From positions 1-64,000 of IMG/VR virus record IMGVR_UViG_3300025853_000041: 64,000 nucleotides of DNA. One strand, 5' to 3'. Below the pieces are notes generated by a model. That model saw only the letters and a program-made list of their open reading frames with translations, did not search any database and had not been told where the DNA came from. Position numbers and translations under genes: made by a program. This document shows positions 6,543 through 64,000 of this stretch, one piece after another (position 1 is the stretch's first letter; each line of letters begins with the position of its first letter). Origin of the DNA: a virus.

Positions 6543-6788
6543 TTATTCACTTGGGTATATAGTATCATCAAAACTATTTGATAATACGGTTATTAATTTC
6601 TGTACTTGTTCTTGTGTCAATTGAATATAAGGTTGAGTGCTTAGCATTGTAAGCTGAAGCATTCTTCCATTTTCTGCTCCACCATAGAACCTAGTAATCA
6701 TCATACCTGTTGGCTCCTTAACGTGCTTTGCAAGAGTAGATTTTTTACTTTCTACTATACCTGCTATTGTTGTAATGTGTGTGCTCAT
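6543..6788 (-). CDS. hypothetical protein
   Basis: 81-aa co-oriented ORF. Confidence 0.7.
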   Translation of the reverse strand: MSTHITTIAGIVESKKSTLAKHVKEPTGMMITRFYGGAENGRMLQLTMLSTQPYIQLTQEQVQKLITVLSNSFDDTIYPSE

Positions 6789-6801
6789 TTTTTCCTATAT
6801 T

Positions 6802-7467
6802 TTATAAGTTTTCTTTTATCCAATCTATAAAAAGTCCACTATGCACTAATTTAGCTTGTCCCCAACATTGTTTACATAGTTCTTCAACTTCTTCTCTACT
6901 ATACATCTTCTCTTCTACAGAAGTAATGTTCACAGTATTGTCTTGGTTTAGTTTTGGCAACATTATCCAATTTGGTTTATGTTTTAATCCAAAACGAATA
7001 TAATCTTCTTCCCAAGTTTTTGATAAAGGGTTAATATCTTTCTTTTCATACTCAACTTCCCACTCTCCATCAGGATTAGCAACATATTCTTCTAAGAATG
7101 ATAGTGGTACTTGTGGTATCTGGTGTTCAAGATATTCTTTAACTCCATTAGACTCATCAATTACTCCTGTGTATTCTTTAATAGTAAGCTTAGGGTTAGT
7201 AGTTGCTATGATTTTAACATAATCTTGTCTTACTTCCCAATAAGCTTTATCATTAGTAAGAGATTGTCTTACAGTATTAGTATCATCAATATACCAATCA
7301 CCTTCTTTAATAGGCTCTATATCTTGTGATACTGTTATGTATGTATGTTGCCAATTACCTAAAAATCCTTCATGGTTATCTCCAATATATCTTAATTTCT
7401 TTCCAACTAAACATATATTAGTTCTATCTTCTGTTGGTAGCATTATTACCTGTACTGGTTGTTTCAT
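6802..7467 (-). CDS. hypothetical protein
   Basis: 221-aa co-oriented ORF. Confidence 0.8.
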   Translation of the reverse strand: MKQPVQVIMLPTEDRTNICLVGKKLRYIGDNHEGFLGNWQHTYITVSQDIEPIKEGDWYIDDTNTVRQSLTNDKAYWEVRQDYVKIIATTNPKLTIKEYTGVIDESNGVKEYLEHQIPQVPLSFLEEYVANPDGEWEVEYEKKDINPLSKTWEEDYIRFGLKHKPNWIMLPKLNQDNTVNITSVEEKMYSREEVEELCKQCWGQAKLVHSGLFIDWIKENL

Positions 7468-7496
7468 AATTTACTTTGTGTTATTTATTAATAAAA

Positions 7497-7650
7497 ATAT
7501 AAGCCTTGTTTATCTCACCTATTATATTAAAGTTGTCTTTGTATGTGACCAATAATACGTTTCCCCTGTTACCTTATCATACCTTTAGTAACCATTTGTG
7601 AATGCAGGAATTGCTTAGCCTAACTTCCTCTTAATGTTAGGTACTTATAT
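7497..7650 (-). ncRNA. candidate structured ncRNA with paired ends
   Basis: Minus-strand ends AUAUAAGU/GCUUAUAU pair; internal CCUAAC/GUUAGG and GUUAC/GUAAC hairpins; no minus-strand ORF of 60 aa or more. Confidence 0.4.
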
Positions 7651-7659
7651 TTATTAAAA

Positions 7660-7856
7660 AGTTCTTTGCCCAAATTTCAGTTATGGGGTATAGTTAGGAA
7701 TTTTACCTAATCTAGTATGGCTAACCGTATGACTTTTCCATGTCTTACTATACATCTACAATAAACACAACTGCTGATACAGTTTATAGCCTACACGCCA
7801 AGTAGTTTTACATAGCTTCGACACTACTGCTATTGTCTATCTTCAATTAAAGAACT
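7660..7856 (-). ncRNA. candidate structured ncRNA (multibranched)
   Basis: AGUUCUUU/AAAGAACU closing stem; internal AGUAGU/ACUACU, GGCUA/UAGCC and UAUAGU/ACUAUA helices. Confidence 0.4.
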
Positions 7857-7863
7857 ATTCTAA

Positions 7864-7935
7864 CCCTATATCTCATCAGCTATCATAAGATTTCGCTATG
7901 ATATTCAGATAATATCTATCTTGCTGATGAGAGGG
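7864..7935 (-). ncRNA. three-way-junction hairpin immediately 3' of the tmRNA
   Basis: Perfect 10-bp stem TCTCATCAGC (7871-7880)/GCTGATGAGA (7923-7932) enclosing two small hairpins. Confidence 0.4.
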
Positions 7936-7949
7936 CTATTAGATACTAG

Positions 7950-8326
7950 TGGAGACGCTGGGACTCGAACCCAGGTCTTTCATATATCAATAATAATATT
8001 TTATACAGCTTCACGTTTCTTTAAATTCTTTACGCTAGATTAGGACCAACTGTTAAGTTGATACTCCACCATCAAGTTAGTTACTCTTGAATACTTATAT
8101 TACATAGTTATGGACTATGCAGCCATCTGAAGTTCACCAGTAACAACATCATTAAGATGCTTACTAGCAAGAATGTTGTGAACAACACTCATGTTTGCTT
8201 CAATCTGTGCAGTTTCCTGCGTGGTAATTGTGTTTCCATTTAAGTAAACTCACCTTAGTTTTAAACAGTTATCTCTCTGTGCTGAACATTATTAAATCGC
8301 TATAAAATCAATTCCATGTCGTCCCC
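7950..8326 (-). ncRNA. ssrA: tmRNA (transfer-messenger RNA)
   Basis: 5' GGGGACG pairs with 3' CGUCUCC-A and includes the G3.U alanine identity pair; T-arm CUGGGUUCGAGUCCCAG; 377 nt long; internal tag frame 8237..8115 ends in LQMAA*. CCA is not encoded (ACUA). Confidence 0.92.
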
Positions 8327-8337
8327 AAATTCTATTT

Positions 8338-8826
8338 TTAATATCCAAAAGTTTGACAGTACCACGTTTTACCATTTTCATCTAAAACTTTTGCAATACC
8401 TGTATATTTCCAACGAGGATTTACAATGTTTTTATGATGCTTAAGACTAGCAATCCATTCTTGAACTAATCTCTCGGAAGTAACCCATCCTTTTGCTAAA
8501 TTTTCTCCTGTAAATTTAATTCCAAAAGGAATAAGATTCTCAGTTGTTATATCCATTCTATCATGACTTAGTTTTCCATGTTCAGCTTGAATCTCTGCTC
8601 TTTTATGTGCTTCAACATAAAATTTATCATCTGGTTTTAAATCATCTAAATCTCGTGATTCCCGATACCTATTTACATGAAGCAAAACAGCTCTTTCAAA
8701 ATTAGACCATTTCATACCATCAATAGATTGGTACTTTTTCTTTTTAAATAATTTCATTAAATATTTTCGATTACTACATATTACTACCACAGCAATAAAT
8801 ATTAGACCTGATATTAGTGTACTCAT
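8338..8826 (-). CDS. CAP/SCP-domain protein with N-terminal membrane anchor
   Basis: LLHVNRYRESR, LSH, GENLA, W..SLKHHKNI, TGIA...WYCQTF are CAP superfamily motifs. Confidence 0.85.
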   Translation of the reverse strand: MSTLISGLIFIAVVVICSNRKYLMKLFKKKKYQSIDGMKWSNFERAVLLHVNRYRESRDLDDLKPDDKFYVEAHKRAEIQAEHGKLSHDRMDITTENLIPFGIKFTGENLAKGWVTSERLVQEWIASLKHHKNIVNPRWKYTGIAKVLDENGKTWYCQTFGY

Positions 8827-8856
8827 ATCTTTATCTATTTTAGTTGTTATTCGGAG

Positions 8857-9117
8857 TTAGGCTTCATTAGTGTATTGGTTGTAAGCCGTTCTAAGTTCTG
8901 ATAATGTTAAGCTATCTCCATGATTTTTCAATGTTGTATAATTTTCTGAAACCCAATCCACAAACGAAAGGCTAACATTGGCTATTGGTAAATTTAAAAC
9001 TTGCCTATATTTTTCTAATAATTCAATTAATTCATTAAATGTAAAATATTGTTTATAGTCTTCATTTGGTAGGCTGTTTAAGTTATACTCTTTTTTTAAA
9101 AATTCTGTAACTGTCAT
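8857..9117 (-). CDS. hypothetical protein
   Basis: 86-aa co-oriented ORF. Confidence 0.65.
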   Translation of the reverse strand: MTVTEFLKKEYNLNSLPNEDYKQYFTFNELIELLEKYRQVLNLPIANVSLSFVDWVSENYTTLKNHGDSLTLSELRTAYNQYTNEA

Positions 9118-9136
9118 ATCTATCTTATTTTAATTA

Positions 9137-9319
9137 TTATACGGAGTTGTGTGTAATAATCATTTGTTTAGGTTCGTCTAATAATGTTTGGTCTAATAAA
9201 AGATTTGCTTTAGGTTCAAAAAGCAACCCATTTTCTGCCATTATTTTTACTGGCAACTTTCGTAATTCAGGTTTAAGTGCCTGCAAATCTTTTATGAAGT
9301 CATCTATTGTCATTTCCAT
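9137..9319 (-). CDS. hypothetical protein
   Basis: 60-aa co-oriented ORF. Confidence 0.65.
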   Translation of the reverse strand: MEMTIDDFIKDLQALKPELRKLPVKIMAENGLLFEPKANLLLDQTLLDEPKQMIITHNSV

Positions 9320-9330
9320 ATCTTTAGGTT

Positions 9331-9522
9331 TTAGTTGTTATTCGCTGCATTACATAATAAATTAAGTCTCCATACAGCAAGTTGATATTCTGCTTTTTTC
9401 AATAGCATATCATACTTACGCCATTTATTTGAATTAACTTTATACGAATCACGTCTTGCAGTATAAATTTTAATTCTGTTTTTCCAATATAGTATTGGTG
9501 AGCATTCAAATAAATTTTTCAT
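9331..9522 (-). CDS. hypothetical protein
   Basis: 63-aa co-oriented ORF. Confidence 0.55.
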   Translation of the reverse strand: MKNLFECSPILYWKNRIKIYTARRDSYKVNSNKWRKYDMLLKKAEYQLAVWRLNLLCNAANNN

Positions 9523-9819
9523 AACAAAACGTTTTATAATAATGTATATAAGTAATAAAAGAGCTGAGTATTAGGATGTGCATCTACACTTAATCTCATT
9601 TAATTGCTATTGTAAGTTCACGTTAAACCTCTCCACAAGCAAACTCTTCTTATAAACCTTTTACTCAGTAACTTAATACTTATTTCCACGCAAAGGGTTT
9701 CTTATTCATCCCAATTGGTTGAAAGTGCAATAATCATTATTACTATTAGAACTGCTGTTACTGTCATCTTTTAGAAAATATAATTAAAATAAACATCACT
9801 ATTATATATATCCATCCCA

Positions 9820-55840: not shown

Positions 55841-58800
55841 ATGAACGAAGAAGATATCTTACAACTCAAATTAGCTGGGTACATAGTAGAGAATGGGAAT
55901 ATATTAAGTCCTGAAGGTCAGTTTTTATCTAACGTAGAAGTTAATGGTAAAGCTTACAATTCTCTTGATTCAGAAGAAGATTATAATTATCTTAAAGAAG
56001 CTGAAGAAACTATTTTATCAGATAGAACTGCTGCTGAAGAAGCCAAAAATCAACAAAAAGAAAAGATTACTCAATATGAAGCAAATCCTTTAATTTTTGC
56101 TGACCTTGATGATGTGTCTGATGAGGTGTTTACTGAATATATGGACAAAAAGGCTGAAGATAATGAGCCTGGAGCCTATATGCTTAAAGATGATTTGATT
56201 GCTGAAAAGAAATCAGAAGCTATTCAAGAGGACCTAGTTAATAATTTAGAGACAGGTGAGCCATTAAGTACAAACACAATCTTCACTGAAATTCAAAAAG
56301 ATACTATGTTTCAAGACAAAGGTATTAATTTTGATATTTTAAAAGAAGTATTACCTACTGAGAATAGAATAAAAGAAATTGAAAACGTAGATGAAGATGT
56401 GGACACTATACTAAAAGGTGTCACATCTGAAAAAAAGGATAAAGATAGAAATATTTTTAGCAAGTTAGGAGATTGGATGTGGGATGGCATATATAGTGGT
56501 ATTGCTGCATTGACTCCTGATGGTGTTGGAATGGATGATAAAGACCTTAAAAAAGAGTATGTTGGGTTAAATGAAAAAAGAAAAAATCTTTTAAAACCTG
56601 AGATTGCTAAAATAAGTAATGTCTTAAAAGAAGAATTAGATTTTTACAATAAAGACTATGAAGAAAATTATTCCAATGCTGGTGCTCTATTTGGTAGAGA
56701 AGACCAAGATATTAATAATTATGTTAGACGACAATTACAATCTAAAATAAATTATTTAGACTCTTTTGTTGATGATGCAAATGTTTATAACTTAATCAGT
56801 GAAGAATTTTTAACTGATGTGGGAACACTTGGGTTAAGAGATGCTCATGATGCTGTTAAGTATCGTGCCCATTTAATAGGTAAACTAGAGAATGGAGAAG
56901 AACTAACACCTACTGAACAAAGAGCTGTTGAGAATCTAGGAAGAATAGATTTATTGGGTGGTTTAGATTTAGAACAAAGTACATTATATAATTTAACTTA
57001 TGGTGCAGGACATTCTGTATCTTATTTAGCTGGTGGTGTCTTTGGTAGAATGGCTGGTAAAGTTGTTGGTAAAGGCATTGCCAAAGGTGTTACAGGAGCT
57101 GTTGGGTCTAACTTTGCAAGTAAATTAGCCACTGCAGGTGGTAAGCAAGTTGTAAAAGAGTCTATTGGAAGAACAGTAGGTTTAGTAGGAGATATTGCAA
57201 CTCAAGCTACACTACATACTTCTAATTTAGCAAATACTATTGACAATTATTATGGAACAGTTCATATGGGCTTTGATGAAGATGGTAATAAAGTTCTAGA
57301 AACAGATAGAATGCAATATGAATCTGTTCAAAGAGATATAACTTTATATGAAGATGCATTAAATAGTGGACTTGTTCCTGAAGACCAACTAGAAGCAACA
57401 AAAAGTAATCTAAAATACCTAAAACAAATGTTTAGTGAGATGAAAGAGCCTCAAACAGTTGGAGGTGCTCTGGCTAAATCTTGGACAGGCAACTTTGTTG
57501 AATCTGCTTCAGAGGTGGCAACTCTTAATGTTCTTAAAGGTATTCCTAATAACCTTGTAACTAGAAAACTAACTGAAGGACTTAGAAAAACACCTACTTG
57601 GAAAAATTTAGTTTCAAAGACAAAATCTTTCACAGCAGGACCTACTAATATTCTAAATAAAATAAATAAGCCTTTCCCTAAAACTATGGAAGCTTTGAAC
57701 AGCTTCTCTGGGAATAGATTAGGAAATGTCACTATTGGTGGCAACTTAGAAGAGGCATTAGAAGAAGTTGCAGTACAGGTAGTCCCAGTTTGGGGAGAAA
57801 CTGACAAAGAAGCTGCAGCAAGAAAAGATGAACTACTTCATGGAAGTTTCTATTTCAATGTTTTAGCTCAAGCTCCACTACAAAAAATAATTATGAGCCC
57901 TGTTGGTACTGCCATCAGAGGTAAAAATTATATAAATAGGAAATTAGATGCAGATTACAGACAAACTAAAAAGAATTTCAATGAGTTAATGAAAGACTTA
58001 CAAAAAGGAGGTCTTGAAAAAGAAGAGTTTGATGAAATACTAATGGCTGCAGGAAGTGGAAACTTTAGCCAACTAGAATATAAGAACAAGATTAAGGAGT
58101 TAGATGAAAGAGGTGAAACTGTACAAGCTAATAAGATTCGAGAAAATAGAATCTTTAATGCAGCTTTTATGGCAATGAAACATGGTAAAGGCAAAGAGTT
58201 CATTTCTGCTTTAGAAAAATCTTTAGCTAAGCAACAAGCACCAACTACAATTCCTACACAAAAAGAGGCAGCTACTATTGCTGCAACTATACAGGCTATT
58301 ACTGAAGCAAAAGCTGTTCAAAAAAGTATGAAAAAAGTTGAAGGGCTACCTAATGCTGAATTTATTTTGAACTTAGAATATAATAAAAGAAACTTAGAAA
58401 AGAATAAAGAAGGTATTAGAGCAGAATTGTCTGCTATTGATGCTTCTGAGTTACTAAGTGATGAGCAGAAAGAAGGGCAAAGACTTATGTGGGATGGTCT
58501 TATGGAAGATACAGAAAAAGGTCTTAGGGTTTTAAATAAAAAGATAGAAGGTGAAAAATCACCTACAAAAATAAAAAGATATAAGGATGAGGCTTCTATG
58601 ATGGTGTTTGCAAAACGTCATTTAGAACAACAGAAAAAAGAAGGAGTAGAACAAATGAGCTTAGAGACAGCAATAGAAGAAGCTTATGGTAAGTCTATTT
58701 CTAATTCGAGTAAGAAGAAAGTCCTTAAAACAATGGAAGCAGTAGAAATACTACAAATAGCTCAACAAGAAGCTAAAGAAAAAGCTGCTCCAATAGTAGA

Positions 58801-61800
58801 AGAACCCACAGAAGAGGTTAGCCCTGAGGACAGTCCAGAGACTGTTGAGGGGAATGAAATCACTGATACTGGCATCCCAGAGGCTGCACCTCCTGTGACT
58901 ACAACTCCATTTGGCACTGTCTCAACAGATAGAAACCAAGAAGTTGAAATGTTAGCAGAGGAATTCAAAGAAGCAGTATCAGAAGATATGGAAACTATTG
59001 AAGGTATGATTGAAGATGCACCTGAAGCTCCACCTATGGACATTTTTATGGACATGGATGAAGATGAGATGATTGAATCTTTAGGAGGTAAAAATCAAGG
59101 TAATCCTTTAGTAAGTATAGGTAACAAGATGAAAGATTTTGTTGCAAAGGCTAAGAAAACCACAGGTAGAGATGTAACTTTTGAAGATTTCTTATTAGCT
59201 GTTGCTGGTAGAGGACCAATATCTGATTACAAAAGCTACTTAACCTTATTTGCAAATGCTTGGAGCAATGCAGGTTTAGGTCAAGTAAATGCTCAAGAAA
59301 AGTATATAGCTGCAGTTGAGATGGCAAACCTACTTAATGAAAAAATTGAGATGGCTACCAATGAAGTTCTAGAAATATCTCCAGAGCAAACTAAAAAATT
59401 AGAAACAGAAGAAAAAGCTTTAGGTTTAACAACCACTGAAACAGAGGTAGTTAATCGTGATGCTAATGGAATTCCTGTTGTTACTCAAAAAAGAGATAAT
59501 GTCTTTGACGAGATTTACAAGATTAATAATGCTGCACTTGAGTTTACAGAAGAAGAAGTAACTGACCCTGAAACAGGAGAGGTATATATTCGTAGAACTA
59601 CTGCTCCTATTGCAAAAAGAAATGAAGAAGCAGGCACAAATATTAATAATCTTGTACATCCTGACAAAAATAATAAAGGAGATATTGTCACTGTTCCTAA
59701 ACCTGTCCCAGAAGAGATAGGAAGTATTATGGTTTCAGTGAGAAATGATAAAGGAAGAACAGTTAAAAGAATATCTTTTGCAGAATGGGCTGAAGAGAAT
59801 AGAGGAGACATGAGTATGGAAGAATTCTCTGAAACTGATGAATACATTGCAAAAGTTCCTATGTTTTATGTAGATAGTGAAGGACAAAAAATAGGCTGGG
59901 TAGCAGAGGCTGACTGGTTTAACCCTTCAACTGAAGGAGAAATGTCTGAAGCTGACAGAAACAACATTAAAGTAAGTAACCTTTCTGGAACTGAATTAGC
60001 TGAAATCGAAAGAAAAAAGCAAAGTGCTCTTTCATTAAGAAAAGAAATCTTAGCAGGGAATGTAGAACAATTTGAAATAGTTTCAGATGGTACTTCATTT
60101 GTTAGGTTATACTTCAAACAAGATGAAGAAGGTAACACTATACCTCCAAAACCTTTATCTGAGGTAGCTCCTGATAGTCAGATAGCAATAATGGGAGTTA
60201 ATGGTCTGCATTTTGTAGATGGTCAAACTCAAATTAGTACTGATGATATAATCAATTGGGGAGACAGTGATTCTGGTTTCTCAAGAAAAGTAGAAAAAGT
60301 TTCTGCTGATGGGAAATCTAAAAAGTTTGTTGTAGAGAATGCTAATAAAGCTGTATATCTTCAACATGTAGCTACTGTCAATGGAGTTAAAAAATATGAG
60401 ATTAGTCTCACTCAAAGACAAAATGATGAAAATGGTGCAGGTGTACCTAAATCAGTAATTGAGACTGTAAGAATTTTGGCTGCTGCTAATACTATTTTAA
60501 TGAATGATACCTTTAGTGTTAAAAAACCTGGTAACATTCCTTTCATTGCTAAGGATAATCCTTATAGAATGACAAAAGAGCAAGCTCAACAGATTCATGA
60601 TAAAGTTAAAAAAGAAACAGGACTTTCTTTATCTACATCTCTAAATGAGTTGATAGAAGGACTTGTTAACATTAAAGATGCTAAGGGAGGAAAAGTGAGT
60701 AGTGGTCTTACAATAGCTAGTCTATCTAACAGGTGGGACAAAGATAATGGTCATGCTGTTAAAGATTCACAGTTTGTTGAGAATACTAAATTTGGTAGAG
60801 ACACACATTTAGGTAAAATTGTATCTATTGCTAAAACAGATAATGGACAATTTGAAGTAAATGTTATTGCAGAAAGTTATATTGACTACTTAAAGGACAC
60901 ACATAAGACTAATATGATGGGTTACAATGTAGGCACAAGTGATAATCCTGTATATACTCCTGCTATTCAACAAGCAGTTAGAATCAAGCCAATCAGAAAA
61001 GTAAAACCAGTTAATGAAATTGTAGAAGAAAACACTACTGCTCCTACTGTTATACAAAAAACAGAGAAGATTGTAGAAGAAGTTAACAATATGGATGAAA
61101 TTGCTGAGGTTTTGGATATTGAAGTGGAAACCAAAACTGAAGAGCAAAAAGTTGCAAGAGAGGCTGCTTTAAATAAAGCCATTGCTACTATTGAAGCTCT
61201 TGGAGGTCAGGTAAACACTGTTGAAGAAAGTGATGAACTTATTGTTTCTGAAATGACTTCAGCACAAAATGTTACTGATTCAATATTAATTACTGAAGGA
61301 TTAACAGTAGAACAAGAAGAAGACCTTATTGGTAGTCTTGCTGCTGAACTGGCAGATAAAAACGCTGATTATAAGCAGATAATGATGAACCTAAATAGTG
61401 ATTTAGCTCATGCAAATACTGCTATTACTAATTCTAAAAATGATTTAATTGATTTTAAAGGTAATCCTACTGTGGATGCTGTGTTAAATTCTTTAAATAC
61501 TTTGAGCACACAAATTCAAAAAGTAAGAGAGAATAGAGATAGGCTGTTAGCTGAAGCTTCTGATAGAGGCAGAAGAGACAGTTTTGTTGTTGATGTTTAT
61601 GAGGAGACAGAAGGAATGTCTGAAAAAGATTATGGTAAAAAAAGTAATGAAGCATTACCAGTAGATAAACTGGGGACTGCTTTGAAAAGAATATTTGCTA
61701 AAGTAGAAACAGGGCAAAAAGGATTCTTAGGTAGAAATAAAATTGCACCATTTAAAAGTATGTATGATACTGTTTTATTAACACTATCTGAATCTATTGG

Positions 61801-64000
61801 AGCAACAACAGACTTTAAAGATATGATGAATATCTTAAGAGAATACTCTGATAGTAACTATTGGATGAAATCTTTAATTGAAAAATTAGAGGCTTCTGAT
61901 GAACAAATACAAAATGCTTTTGTTTATAACATGCATGCTCAAAAAGTTACAGCTTATTTTTCAGGTTTTACTCAAAACAATAATACTTTGAATGCTACAT
62001 TTTATGAGAGTAATTCAAATTCTGCAGTGAGAGCCATTAAAAGAAACTGGCAAGATAACTTTAATAGAACTGCATTAAATGATATGGGTCAATTGAACTT
62101 GGAAGAGGTTAATAGGCTATACAATGAATACTTAAGTTGGGGTAAAAGTCCTGAGAAACAAGATTCTGACACTTTAAGATATTGGTTAGACAACTTTGGT
62201 ATTCGTTTATCAGAGAAGACCATGGAACAGCTTATGTTAGGAGAACTAAGGATTGTAAAAGATGGTGTAGCAGTTAAGCAACCATTTAAGGCTTTATTTG
62301 AGCATTCTGCAGGTGTATTCAATATTTTGAATGAATACCTTATAAAAAACAAAGATGCAAAAGGAGACTTAGGTTTCAGCACAAACACAAAATTAAATCC
62401 TTTCAGTGATATGCACTCTTTATTAGAGCAATTAGCATATCTGGAAGCTAAAAATAATAATAAATATGCCAGTACTACAAGAAGGTCAGGTGGTAAAACT
62501 TTATCTGAAGTAGAGAATATGACATATTTTTACCAACAAATAAGAAAACTTAAAAACTCAGTATTGAGTAAAAACAGTTATGTTGATAAATTAAGAAAAA
62601 CAAGCTTTGCTCAAGATTCTTATATGTTGAGAATGCTTAAAGAAGACCCTGAATTTGTTGAAGCTTTTGACCATGGTTTGATGGACCTTATGGCATTGAA
62701 AGATATCTATAAAGATTCTCCAATGTTTGCAAGTATAGAAGAATTAAGTGAAGAAGATTATCAATTAGCTTTAAGAATTGCATTCCAAGCTAAAGGTAGA
62801 GATGCAAAAATGGACAAGAAAACTGGTTTTAAAATCAGATTATCAAACATGAATACTCTAACCAATTCTGATAAAGGTAGAATGGTAATGTTGAAAACTT
62901 TTGTCTATGATTTTTTCAGAAGTGAACAAGCTTTTGATAAAGACGAAAAGGGGAACTTCGTATTTTCTGATAATTTGAATGAATTGATGTGGAATGATTA
63001 TGTGATGCCTGAATTAAGAAGAATGCACACTTTCATTAATTCAAATCAAGTGACTGATATCAAAGGATATTCAGAGGGAGCTGTTAGATTTAATGTGTTC
63101 CCTGTCCTTAATACTATTACAAACAAAAAAGGGCAAACTATAAAAGAAGCTATTGAAGCTGGAGCCAGTTTAGAACAAATTAAAGAACAGTTTAAAACTG
63201 ATGCCACTAAAGAAGTAGAGAAAAATACTTTTGCAGAAGCTGAAAAAGTTTCAACTAAAAGAAAAACTAATAATGATGCAGAATATTTGGCAGGAAGAAA
63301 AGTTGGAACTCCTGAAGAAAAAAACTTTTTAGCTGAAGTTGATTTTATTTTGAATTCTAAACTGAGTTCAATGAATTATATGCAAATGGTTGCAGGAGAC
63401 CCAGCATTATACTATAAATCAAAAGCTGACAGTACCTCCAAAAATTTAAAAGAGGCTACTAAAGCTTCTATGCAAAGTGCTATTAACCTTGGTAAAAGGA
63501 TGGCAGCAATGATTGCACCAGGAAAGAATTTAGCCAACTCAAAAGGAAACAAGTATATTCAATTATTTATGGATGACATATATGGGTCAGCTTCTAATTT
63601 AGAAGACATTATAGGTTGGCACTATCCTGTTGAAGAGATTGATGAGATGAATCCTGAAACAAAGATGTCTTACAGAGCAATGATTAAAGTTTCTGTATCA
63701 GGAGACACTAAATATGACAAGATATTGAAAGCACAGTTTGATACTGTTTCAGATTTTATTGGAATTGAATCTACTGATGCTCAAGAATACTCAAGTGTTA
63801 AAGAACATCTTTATATCCTTGAAAAGCAAGGACGTTTACCTCAAGAGACAATTAATGAAATTCGTGAAAAGATTGATATGCAGCATAAATTTTACCACAC
63901 TAAATCTAATGTGGGTAAACCTATTCCTGCTGAGTTGTCTTTGAGCACTATAATTAACAGCAAAAATAAAGCAATTGATGGTAAAACACAATTAGAGATT
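55841..64000 (+). CDS. giant virion protein containing the crAss-like virion RNA polymerase (partial, at least 2720 codons)
   Basis: ATG at 55841; no terminated ORF in this frame in the track and the frame is still open at the window end; GDPALYYK, KRMAAMIAPG and IESTDAQEY near 63400-63790 resemble crAss-like RNAP blocks. The catalytic DxDxD motif was not seen in the window. Confidence 0.8.
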   Translation, partial: MNEEDILQLKLAGYIVENGNILSPEGQFLSNVEVNGKAYNSLDSEEDYNYLKEAEETILSDRTAAEEAKNQQKEKITQYEANPLIFADLDDVSDEVFTEYMDKKAEDNEPGAYMLKDDLIAEKKSEAIQEDLVNNLETGEPLSTNTIFTEIQKDTMFQDKGINFDILKEVLPTENRIKEIENVDEDVDTILKGVTSEKKDKDRNIFSKLGDWMWDGIYSGIAALTPDGVGMDDKDLKKEYVGLNEKRKNLLKPEIAKISNVLKEELDFYNKDYEENYSNAGALFGREDQDINNYVRRQLQSKINYLDSFVDDANVYNLISEEFLTDVGTLGLRDAHDAVKYRAHLIGKLENGEELTPTEQRAVENLGRIDLLGGLDLEQSTLYNLTYGAGHSVSYLAGGVFGRMAGKVVGKGIAKGVTGAVGSNFASKLATAGGKQVVKESIGRTVGLVGDIATQATLHTSNLANTIDNYYGTVHMGFDEDGNKVLETDRMQYESVQRDITLYEDALNSGLVPEDQLEATKSNLKYLKQMFSEMKEPQTVGGALAKSWTGNFVESASEVATLNVLKGIPNNLVTRKLTEGLRKTPTWKNLVSKTKSFTAGPTNILNKINKPFPKTMEALNSFSGNRLGNVTIGGNLEEALEEVAVQVVPVWGETDKEAAARKDELLHGSFYFNVLAQAPLQKIIMSPVGTAIRGKNYINRKLDADYRQTKKNFNELMKDLQKGGLEKEEFDEILMAAGSGNFSQLEYKNKIKELDERGETVQANKIRENRIFNAAFMAMKHGKGKEFISALEKSLAKQQAPTTIPTQKEAATIAATIQAITEAKAVQKSMKKVEGLPNAEFILNLEYNKRNLEKNKEGIRAELSAIDASELLSDEQKEGQRLMWDGLMEDTEKGLRVLNKKIEGEKSPTKIKRYKDEASMMVFAKRHLEQQKKEGVEQMSLETAIEEAYGKSISNSSKKKVLKTMEAVEILQIAQQEAKEKAAPIVEEPTEEVSPEDSPETVEGNEITDTGIPEAAPPVTTTPFGTVSTDRNQEVEMLAEEFKEAVSEDMETIEGMIEDAPEAPPMDIFMDMDEDEMIESLGGKNQGNPLVSIGNKMKDFVAKAKKTTGRDVTFEDFLLAVAGRGPISDYKSYLTLFANAWSNAGLGQVNAQEKYIAAVEMANLLNEKIEMATNEVLEISPEQTKKLETEEKALGLTTTETEVVNRDANGIPVVTQKRDNVFDEIYKINNAALEFTEEEVTDPETGEVYIRRTTAPIAKRNEEAGTNINNLVHPDKNNKGDIVTVPKPVPEEIGSIMVSVRNDKGRTVKRISFAEWAEENRGDMSMEEFSETDEYIAKVPMFYVDSEGQKIGWVAEADWFNPSTEGEMSEADRNNIKVSNLSGTELAEIERKKQSALSLRKEILAGNVEQFEIVSDGTSFVRLYFKQDEEGNTIPPKPLSEVAPDSQIAIMGVNGLHFVDGQTQISTDDIINWGDSDSGFSRKVEKVSADGKSKKFVVENANKAVYLQHVATVNGVKKYEISLTQRQNDENGAGVPKSVIETVRILAAANTILMNDTFSVKKPGNIPFIAKDNPYRMTKEQAQQIHDKVKKETGLSLSTSLNELIEGLVNIKDAKGGKVSSGLTIASLSNRWDKDNGHAVKDSQFVENTKFGRDTHLGKIVSIAKTDNGQFEVNVIAESYIDYLKDTHKTNMMGYNVGTSDNPVYTPAIQQAVRIKPIRKVKPVNEIVEENTTAPTVIQKTEKIVEEVNNMDEIAEVLDIEVETKTEEQKVAREAALNKAIATIEALGGQVNTVEESDELIVSEMTSAQNVTDSILITEGLTVEQEEDLIGSLAAELADKNADYKQIMMNLNSDLAHANTAITNSKNDLIDFKGNPTVDAVLNSLNTLSTQIQKVRENRDRLLAEASDRGRRDSFVVDVYEETEGMSEKDYGKKSNEALPVDKLGTALKRIFAKVETGQKGFLGRNKIAPFKSMYDTVLLTLSESIGATTDFKDMMNILREYSDSNYWMKSLIEKLEASDEQIQNAFVYNMHAQKVTAYFSGFTQNNNTLNATFYESNSNSAVRAIKRNWQDNFNRTALNDMGQLNLEEVNRLYNEYLSWGKSPEKQDSDTLRYWLDNFGIRLSEKTMEQLMLGELRIVKDGVAVKQPFKALFEHSAGVFNILNEYLIKNKDAKGDLGFSTNTKLNPFSDMHSLLEQLAYLEAKNNNKYASTTRRSGGKTLSEVENMTYFYQQIRKLKNSVLSKNSYVDKLRKTSFAQDSYMLRMLKEDPEFVEAFDHGLMDLMALKDIYKDSPMFASIEELSEEDYQLALRIAFQAKGRDAKMDKKTGFKIRLSNMNTLTNSDKGRMVMLKTFVYDFFRSEQAFDKDEKGNFVFSDNLNELMWNDYVMPELRRMHTFINSNQVTDIKGYSEGAVRFNVFPVLNTITNKKGQTIKEAIEAGASLEQIKEQFKTDATKEVEKNTFAEAEKVSTKRKTNNDAEYLAGRKVGTPEEKNFLAEVDFILNSKLSSMNYMQMVAGDPALYYKSKADSTSKNLKEATKASMQSAINLGKRMAAMIAPGKNLANSKGNKYIQLFMDDIYGSASNLEDIIGWHYPVEEIDEMNPETKMSYRAMIKVSVSGDTKYDKILKAQFDTVSDFIGIESTDAQEYSSVKEHLYILEKQGRLPQETINEIREKIDMQHKFYHTKSNVGKPIPAELSLSTIINSKNKAIDGKTQLEI

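Follow-up and report, generated by a model that had tools for sequence, protein, structure and literature searches.

A Phage-Borne tmRNA Family with Long Tags and a Conserved, Predicted Helical Core

The minus strand of a phage genome, between positions 7947 and 8326 of the 64,000-nucleotide stretch analysed here (the window), probably encodes a functional tmRNA that belongs to a clade found only in phages and whose 40-residue tag contains a predicted helical core. In textbooks, tmRNA tags are short degrons. In this clade, which is present in more than 100 phage genomes, including those of three cultured phage-host systems, the tags are 24-49 residues long and share an invariant, predicted helical core on which purifying selection acts, an indication that ribosome rescue does more for phages than copy the host function. 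For comparison, the 27-residue tag of mycoplasmas is called "unusually long" in the literature.

Results

A tmRNA Gene on the Minus Strand

The virus record whose first 64 kb constitute the window is 105,181 bp long, has a GC content of ca. 32%, and is rated complete by CheckV; the hosts of the phage are probably of the Flavobacteria type. The sole RNA family that Rfam matched across the 64-kb window was RF00023, tmRNA, with a score of 57.3 bits (E 8e-20, model positions 1-374; the gathering score for this family is 47). The match corresponds to a complete one-piece gene, which we refer to as copy A; its features are listed in Table 1. ARAGORN revealed neither a tRNA nor a tmRNA in the window, and both copy A and the second tmRNA gene of this phage (copy B, described below) went undetected by this program.

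Table 1. Features of the tmRNA locus. Positions are those of the window unless the virus record is named.
Feature	Position	Strand	Remarks
Complete one-piece tmRNA gene (copy A)	7947-8326	-	380 nt; Rfam RF00023
Acceptor stem, 5' strand GGGGACG	8320-8326	-	Pairs with 7957-7951; read from sequence
Acceptor stem, 3' strand, discriminator A, then CUA	7947-7957	-	Rfam and sequence
T-arm, 5-bp stem, loop UUCGAGU	7958-7974	-	Rfam, sequence, family covariation
PK1-region signature, tmRNA nt 48-77	8250-8279	-	Identical in the five first homologues
Frame-setting context UAAAU, tmRNA nt 85-89	8238-8242	-	U at -5, A at -4
Tag template, 40 sense codons, GGA to final Ala-Ala	8118-8237	-	Translation
Tag core, residues 11-23, Q-x-x-A-N-M-x-x-V-x-x-hydrophobic-hydrophobic	8169-8207	-	Tag alignment
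Tag stop codon UAG	8115-8117	-	Sequence; the family uses UAA or UAG
Hairpin, 6 bp, 5-nt loop, counterpart of host helix 5	8103-8119	-	Read from sequence
CAP-domain ORF, 162 residues	8338-8826	-	Pfam E 3e-11; ends 11 nt before the tmRNA 5' end
tmRNA copy B	record 103,911-104,311 (locus L001, 1501-1901)	-	RF00023, 57.4 bits

The tRNA-like domain of copy A consists of an acceptor stem and a T-arm, without an anticodon arm. In the 7-bp acceptor stem, G3 stands opposite the U at 7955, which makes it the G3-U70 alanine identity pair; the same pair is present in all 84 unique full-length members of the family described below. CCA is not encoded in copy A, since the discriminator A is followed by CUA, and most 3' tails across the family read ACUA or ACAA. 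At the end of the tag, the final Ala codon and the stop codon fall within the 5' arm of a hairpin, just as the final GCU and UAA do in host tmRNAs. The region downstream of the tag (PK2-PK4) is short, and the Rfam alignment there has low posterior probabilities.

When the joined 5' and 3' parts of the 84 family sequences were analysed with RNAalifold, compensatory covariation was observed in the acceptor stem, in helix 2, and in the T-arm. Helix 2 comprises approximately 20 pairs, each represented by 3-6 pair types and each formed in 72-84 of the 84 sequences. Judged by these sequence features, copy A is a real tmRNA, and the canonical tRNA-like domain ascribed to it in the preliminary description is confirmed.

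Copy A is probably cut out of a longer transcript, since the CAP-domain ORF ends only 11 nt upstream of it. A scan for σ70 promoters and terminators around copy A was uninformative; a "terminator-like" match on the plus strand is the T-arm hairpin. Directly downstream of copy A, approximately 475 nt (window 7472-7946) contain no credible ORF and gave no Rfam match at gathering thresholds; the corresponding stretch beside copy B is approximately 10 nt long.

A Family of Related tmRNA Genes in Phages

Relatives of copy A were collected by scanning IMG/VR for the PK1-region pattern, which was found in at least 118 distinct contigs, the longest of them 166 kb. From IMG/VR contigs, 108 full-length tmRNA genes of 304-561 nt were extracted, 84 of them unique. 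Because the family was collected by its PK1 pattern, its count is a lower bound, and covariation within PK1, a region conserved in the family, would be uninformative.

Among isolated phages, a blastn search revealed tmRNAs of this family in Cellulophaga phages phi14:2 and phi38:1/Calle and in the Flavobacterium psychrophilum FpV4 group. These represent three lineages that are distinct in the ICTV taxonomy: phi14:2 belongs to Crassvirales, the FpV4 group to Fipvunavirus, and phi38:1/Calle to Pervagoviridae. The tmRNAs of phi14:2 (KC821624, 4031-4502), phi38:1/Calle_1 (MT732432, 42950-43311), and the FpV4 group (KT876724, 81947-82361) contain frames of 38, 30, and 35 codons, respectively. They share with copy A the PK1 signature, the resume context, the Q/ANM/V core, and a hydrophobic, small-residue end, while their nucleotide identity to it (approximately 77-83%) extends over only 27-58% of the RNA. 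Each isolate genome carries one such gene, versus two in the phage studied here.

The PK1 pattern was also searched for in 185,579 bacterial and archaeal species, with a single match, in a phage-like MAG contig of 4.9 kb. A counterpart of this contig, equal in length and from the same sample, is listed as viral in IMG/VR, and Rfam found no other tmRNA above threshold in the MAG that holds it. A tag-profile search of 401 Flavobacteriales genomes yielded the same contig as its only match to the tmRNA family. As far as searched, then, the clade appears to be restricted to phages of Flavobacteriia-type hosts and absent from bacterial chromosomes.

ARAGORN detects 60 of the 84 family members and misses 24; in 51 cases it reports a C-terminal sub-part of the long frame. 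The starts that it chooses look heuristic, as they differ between near-identical homologues, and because of this inconsistency the program was not used for setting the resume codon. Since ARAGORN misses some genes, usually shortens the tag, and places its start inconsistently, genes of this family are unannotated or mis-annotated in public records: the tmRNA is unannotated in records of the FpV4 group, and small "hypothetical proteins" are annotated across the gene in phi14:2.

Phage tmRNA genes are known in mycobacteriophages and in Bacillus phage G (PMC4131195). In a survey that found tmRNA in 402 of 18,146 phage genomes, phi14:2 and phi38:1 appear in the supplementary table (PMC9004378), and the tmRNA of Calle has also been recorded (PMC8776804). 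The presence of tmRNA in phi14:2 and phi38:1/Calle was therefore already known; what is new here is a second paralogue with a 42-residue tag. In the literature searched, no published description of the long tag, the conserved core, or the phage-only clade was found.

The Resume Codon and the Open Frame

The putative resume codon of copy A, GGA at 8237-8235, stands behind UAAAU, 12 nt after the PK1 region, and opens a frame of 40 codons that ends in Ala-Ala-UAG. In the Rfam alignment, this GGA occupies the position of the consensus resume codon. The tmRNA of E. coli likewise resumes 12 nt after PK1, and there the near-invariant A86 sets the frame four nt downstream (PMC2481249). In all 84 family members, the codon located 11-13 nt after the PK1 pattern is GGA, GGC, or GAC and is preceded by UAA(A/U)(U/C), and host Flavobacteriales tmRNAs have UAAxU before GGC at the same place (approximately nt 90-96).

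Taken alone, an open frame of 40 codons in a single sequence is not overwhelming evidence. However, an open frame extends from this context to an AA-type end in every one of the 84 unique full-length homologues, over 24-49 codons (median 35), which is far beyond chance; in the other two frames of the tag stretch, the mean number of stops across the family is 3-5. The distance from the resume codon to the conserved GCN-AAY-AUG of the core takes eight distinct values between 15 and 51 nt, all of them multiples of three. In 83 sequences, this segment is free of in-frame stops, whereas the two alternative frames contain 110 and 45.

Variation within the frame follows the codons. Family mean entropy in the tag frame rises from 0.77 and 0.74 at the first and second codon positions to 1.22 at the third, and pN/pS, calculated over a minimum spanning tree, comes to 0.55 in this frame versus 1.01 and 1.15 in the shifted frames. 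The core has the lowest value (0.29), whereas the N-terminal spacer (0.77) and the C-terminal part (0.74) have higher ones. We conclude from these sequence comparisons that the whole long frame is under selection at the level of the peptide. What doubt remains over the resume site concerns the first nine residues, which are weakly constrained.

Resumption at GGA 8237, as proposed in the preliminary description, is thus supported by the Rfam alignment, by the position of the U(-5)A(-4) context 11-13 nt after PK1, and by the eight N-terminal length classes. The conservation of the long frame at the codon level, which that description had suggested looking for in related phage tmRNAs, was observed. 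Neither an in-frame stop in any homologue nor a conserved downstream resume context, either of which it had set against its own reading, was found. Of the two programs that it named for fixing the resume codon, Rfam places it at this GGA, while ARAGORN finds nothing in the window. Its estimate that the tag makes up about a third of the RNA also holds, the tag and its stop occupying 123 of the 380 nt of copy A. A length of 40 residues is exceptional in comparison with bacterial tags, as had been stated, but it is ordinary within the phage family and is not a peculiarity of this phage.

Anatomy and Conservation of the Tag Peptide

In an alignment of 75 distinct tags, Q11 and M16 (numbered as in copy A) are invariant, and A14, N15, V19, and the terminal A-A are conserved in at least 90%. 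The conserved residues are encoded by 2-4 synonymous codons, including UUR and CUN leucines; among all codons, the AUG of the core alone does not vary across the 78 distinct templates. The tags are built of four parts: a polar N-terminal spacer that varies, the predicted helical core, a linker that is likewise variable and in many cases acidic, and a hydrophobic-Ala-Ala end. The last two residues are Ala-Ala in 71 of the 78 distinct tags and Val-Ala or Gly-Val in the remainder, and A-V-A-A is the commonest ending; copy A ends in M-A-A and copy B in I-A-A.

The tag of copy A thus has the hydrophobic-Ala-Ala C-terminus of a ClpXP-type ssrA degron; its length, and that of the tags of the family as a whole, lies outside the 8-15 residues of the canonical degron. 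Tags of host Flavobacteriales have 8 or 9 residues and are mostly GENNYALAA. Searches of Pfam and of the ESM Atlas with the tag peptide gave no meaningful match.

AlphaFold2, supplied with the tag alignment, predicted a helix over residues 6-24 (pLDDT of the block approximately 77-88) and a weaker helix over residues 29-39. By helical-wheel reasoning, the conserved residues would lie on one broad face of the predicted helix. The amphipathic helix envisaged in the preliminary description is therefore upheld as a predicted helix, but its amphipathicity is modest, with a hydrophobic moment of 0.25-0.3 over the core.

The core codons of copy A also fold into a perfect 8-bp hairpin, capped by a UUCA loop and matched to helix 5 in the Rfam alignment. 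This hairpin inside the frame is absent from many family members (z near 0) through synonymous changes that keep the peptide motif, and some subgroups form different hairpins nearby instead. The hairpin was therefore rejected as the cause of core conservation, and, since the same peptide is encoded without a stable hairpin in many relatives, the core is conserved mainly at the peptide level.

Two further observations concern the core. One family member (locus L038, 2559-2705, minus strand) has a frame of 49 codons without A-N-M that still ends in I-A-A, i.e., a divergent tag on the same RNA scaffold. A protein of the MotA/TolQ/ExbB family (locus L161, 1180-1917, minus strand) contains nine residues, Q-I-E-A-N-M-E-x-V, identical to some cores. 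The match also occurs in three other Flavobacteriales genomes, with E of approximately 0.005 per genome over 401 genomes; being at chance level, it was rejected as a case of mimicry.

Alternative Explanations of the Long Frame

Resumption further downstream, with a shorter tag and with the upstream codons serving as an untranslated spacer, we consider unlikely. Candidate sites do exist: in copy A, GCA at residue 10 follows AAACU, a semi-canonical context, and would give a tag of 31 residues, and the starts that ARAGORN chooses in homologues would give tags of 9-33 residues, a C-terminal sub-part of the frame in 51 of the 60 members that it detects. Second contexts of the UAAAC/UAAUU type occur inside the frames of Calle_1 and phi14:2, and the weak constraint on the N-terminal spacer is also what an untranslated stretch could display. 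However, the ARAGORN starts are unstable among near-identical homologues, and no internal context is conserved in the family, while the context behind the PK1 pattern is fixed in 84 of 84 members. The strict maintenance of frame through eight N-terminal length classes, with zero stops against 110 and 45, likewise argues for translation from GGA. Since the core lies inside most of the alternative tags, even a downstream start would leave a tag of approximately 20-31 residues. Still less credence is given to the notion that the invariant AUG of the core is a conventional start codon and that the RNA doubles as an mRNA for a peptide of 15-30 residues, which we regard as exceedingly improbable. 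The complete lack of variation of this AUG would fit such a role, and Bacteroidota start translation without a strong Shine-Dalgarno sequence. Yet the Q, A, and N codons located 5' of the AUG preserve their amino acids through synonymous variation and keep the frame set by the resume context, which is unlike a 5' leader, and no in-frame start codon precedes the resume codon as far back as the upstream stop that closes the frame.

The core might instead be an RNA element, a helix 5-like hairpin in the template, with the open frame a mere by-product. The perfect hairpin of copy A, its alignment to helix 5, and the other hairpins formed nearby in some subgroups are what this explanation can call upon. 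It is made very unlikely by the many members that retain the peptide motif while lacking a stable hairpin, by the excess of third-position variation and the low core pN/pS, which are seen in the tag frame only, and by the position of the invariant Q, A, and N, which lie 5' of the hairpin and use two to four synonymous codons. We attach equally little probability to the view that no tagging takes place, the RNA being a decoy that ties up the host's SmpB, AlaRS, or EF-Tu, or else a decaying gene copy. A decoy role has a precedent in the proposal made for the RNA of mycobacteriophage DS6A, which consists of the tRNA-like domain (TLD) only; that tmRNA can be inhibited by a molecule reduced to the TLD has been noted (Hudson et al. 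2014, PMC4131195). The Rfam score of copy A, about half of that of host tmRNAs (57 versus 110-145 bits), could also be taken as a sign of decoy function or decay. A decoy, however, would need neither a codon-constrained open frame, nor an AA end, nor a stop inside the terminal hairpin, all of which are conserved, and decay is at odds with the structure-preserving covariation across 84 variants. Tagging with the long peptide thus remains the preferred reading.

The Phage Genome and a Second tmRNA Gene

Copy A is located in a minus-strand arm of the genome, near genes for a family-A DNA polymerase and a Dda-like helicase. The DNA polymerase is at most approximately 42% identical to that of any isolate, so the phage has no close cultured relative and could not be placed by its polymerase. 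Elsewhere in the window, a giant plus-strand ORF (55841-64000) of more than 2,720 residues continues past the window end. No genes for SmpB, ClpP, Lon, SspB, or tRNAs (the latter sought with Rfam RF00005 and ARAGORN) were found in the phage genome, and its only tRNA-like genes are the two tmRNAs, both of which must therefore depend on host factors.

Copy B contains a tag frame of 42 codons with an Ala-Ala end. The two copies match closely at both ends, with approximately 96-99% identity in about the first 158 and about the last 125 nt, but cannot be aligned over approximately 110 nt in the middle of the gene, where the C-terminal half of the tag is encoded and the sequence immediately behind it lies. 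The paralogues thus share the core, while their tags differ in the C-terminal half, the middle cassette. A compensatory change from U-A to C-G in helix 2 distinguishes the copies, which indicates that both are kept as folded RNAs.

The genes lie within a collinear duplication of approximately 3 kb (window 6721-9648 and record 102411-105181), whose two sides are 68% to 97% identical; most of the CAP-domain ORF (window 8338-8737) is missing from the copy B side. In 36 related, mostly complete phage genomes searched with Rfam, exactly one full-length tmRNA gene was found in each, and a pair in one genome is therefore unusual.

Discussion

By analogy with bacterial tmRNA and its general pathway, the phage transcript would be processed like a tRNA and would then receive CCA, host AlaRS would charge it with alanine via G3-U70, and host SmpB would bring it to stalled ribosomes, the phage itself being without smpB. 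Translation would restart at GGA, the 40-residue tag would be added, and the tagged protein would be released. Given the AA end, the C-terminus may still direct tagged chains to host AAA+ proteases.

What the core would contribute is a matter of more tentative proposals. It could possibly be an added docking element for an adaptor or a protease, or could otherwise alter the fate of rescued chains. Somewhat more doubtful is a broader proposal that Flavobacteriia phages reprogram trans-translation, with the core handing rescued proteins to a specific partner, unlike the host pathway with its 9-residue degron; the partner might be a dedicated adaptor or protease, a sequestration route, or the core might act as a protease-jamming decoy. 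If such reprogramming took place, two paralogues with different cassettes would give two fates to rescued proteins or would evade a host counter-measure. A host partner seems likelier than a phage one, as the gene is found in unrelated phage backbones; no conserved neighbour gene suggests itself as the partner, since even the most widespread family of flanking ORFs is present at 21 of 124 loci at most. The two roles put forward in the preliminary description, a changed fate of rescued proteins (through a different protease or adaptor, or a folded appendage) and the replacement of a host tmRNA cleaved by defence RNases, stand as hypotheses. Since phi14:2, Calle, FpV4, and their hosts are in culture, the idea that phages use ribosome rescue in their own way is directly testable.

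Copy A resembles the SsrA RNA of host Flavobacteriales in its tRNA-like domain with G3-U70, helix 2, Gly resume codon, and Ala-Ala end. It differs in the length of its tag (40 versus 8-9 residues), in its lower Rfam score, and in its shorter pseudoknot region. A model for an upstream recognition element combined with a C-terminal AA degron is offered by the 11-residue ssrA tag of E. coli, which is bipartite, with an SspB site and a ClpX degron, and is bound by SspB in extended form. The upstream element of copy A is, by contrast, a predicted helix of 19 residues, and SspB (PF04386) was found neither in the phage genome nor in a Bacteroides control genome.

A precedent for a longer tag with changed protease specificity comes from Mycoplasma and Mesoplasma. 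According to one paper, their 27-residue tag is thought to have evolved for recognition by Lon, and an internal hydrophobic stretch matters there (PMC8403727, citing Gur and Sauer 2008). By eye, the mycoplasma tag has no sequence similarity to the phage tags, which are longer (median 35) and keep the ClpX-type AA end. Mycoplasmas also lack ClpXP, while ClpP is present in a Bacteroidota control genome.

Mycobacteriophage Bxz1 (NC_004687, 100059-100495) likewise carries a one-piece tmRNA gene, for which ARAGORN gives a tag of 25 residues, approximately twice the length of its host's tag. The Bxz1 tag contains A-E-I-E-A, a hydrophobic pair, E-E, and an Ala-rich end, which echo A-Q-I-E-A, E-E, and A-A of copy A. 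The two differ in that Bxz1 is an actinobacterial phage whose tmRNA belongs to an unrelated RNA lineage, lies in a tRNA cluster, and has a tag ending in ALV rather than AA; the likeness, which concerns a few residues, may reflect convergence or chance. The tmRNA of Calle, too, is located among or near tRNA genes, of which the phage studied here has none. As the Bxz1 tag has 25 residues, long tags may be a wider phage trait.
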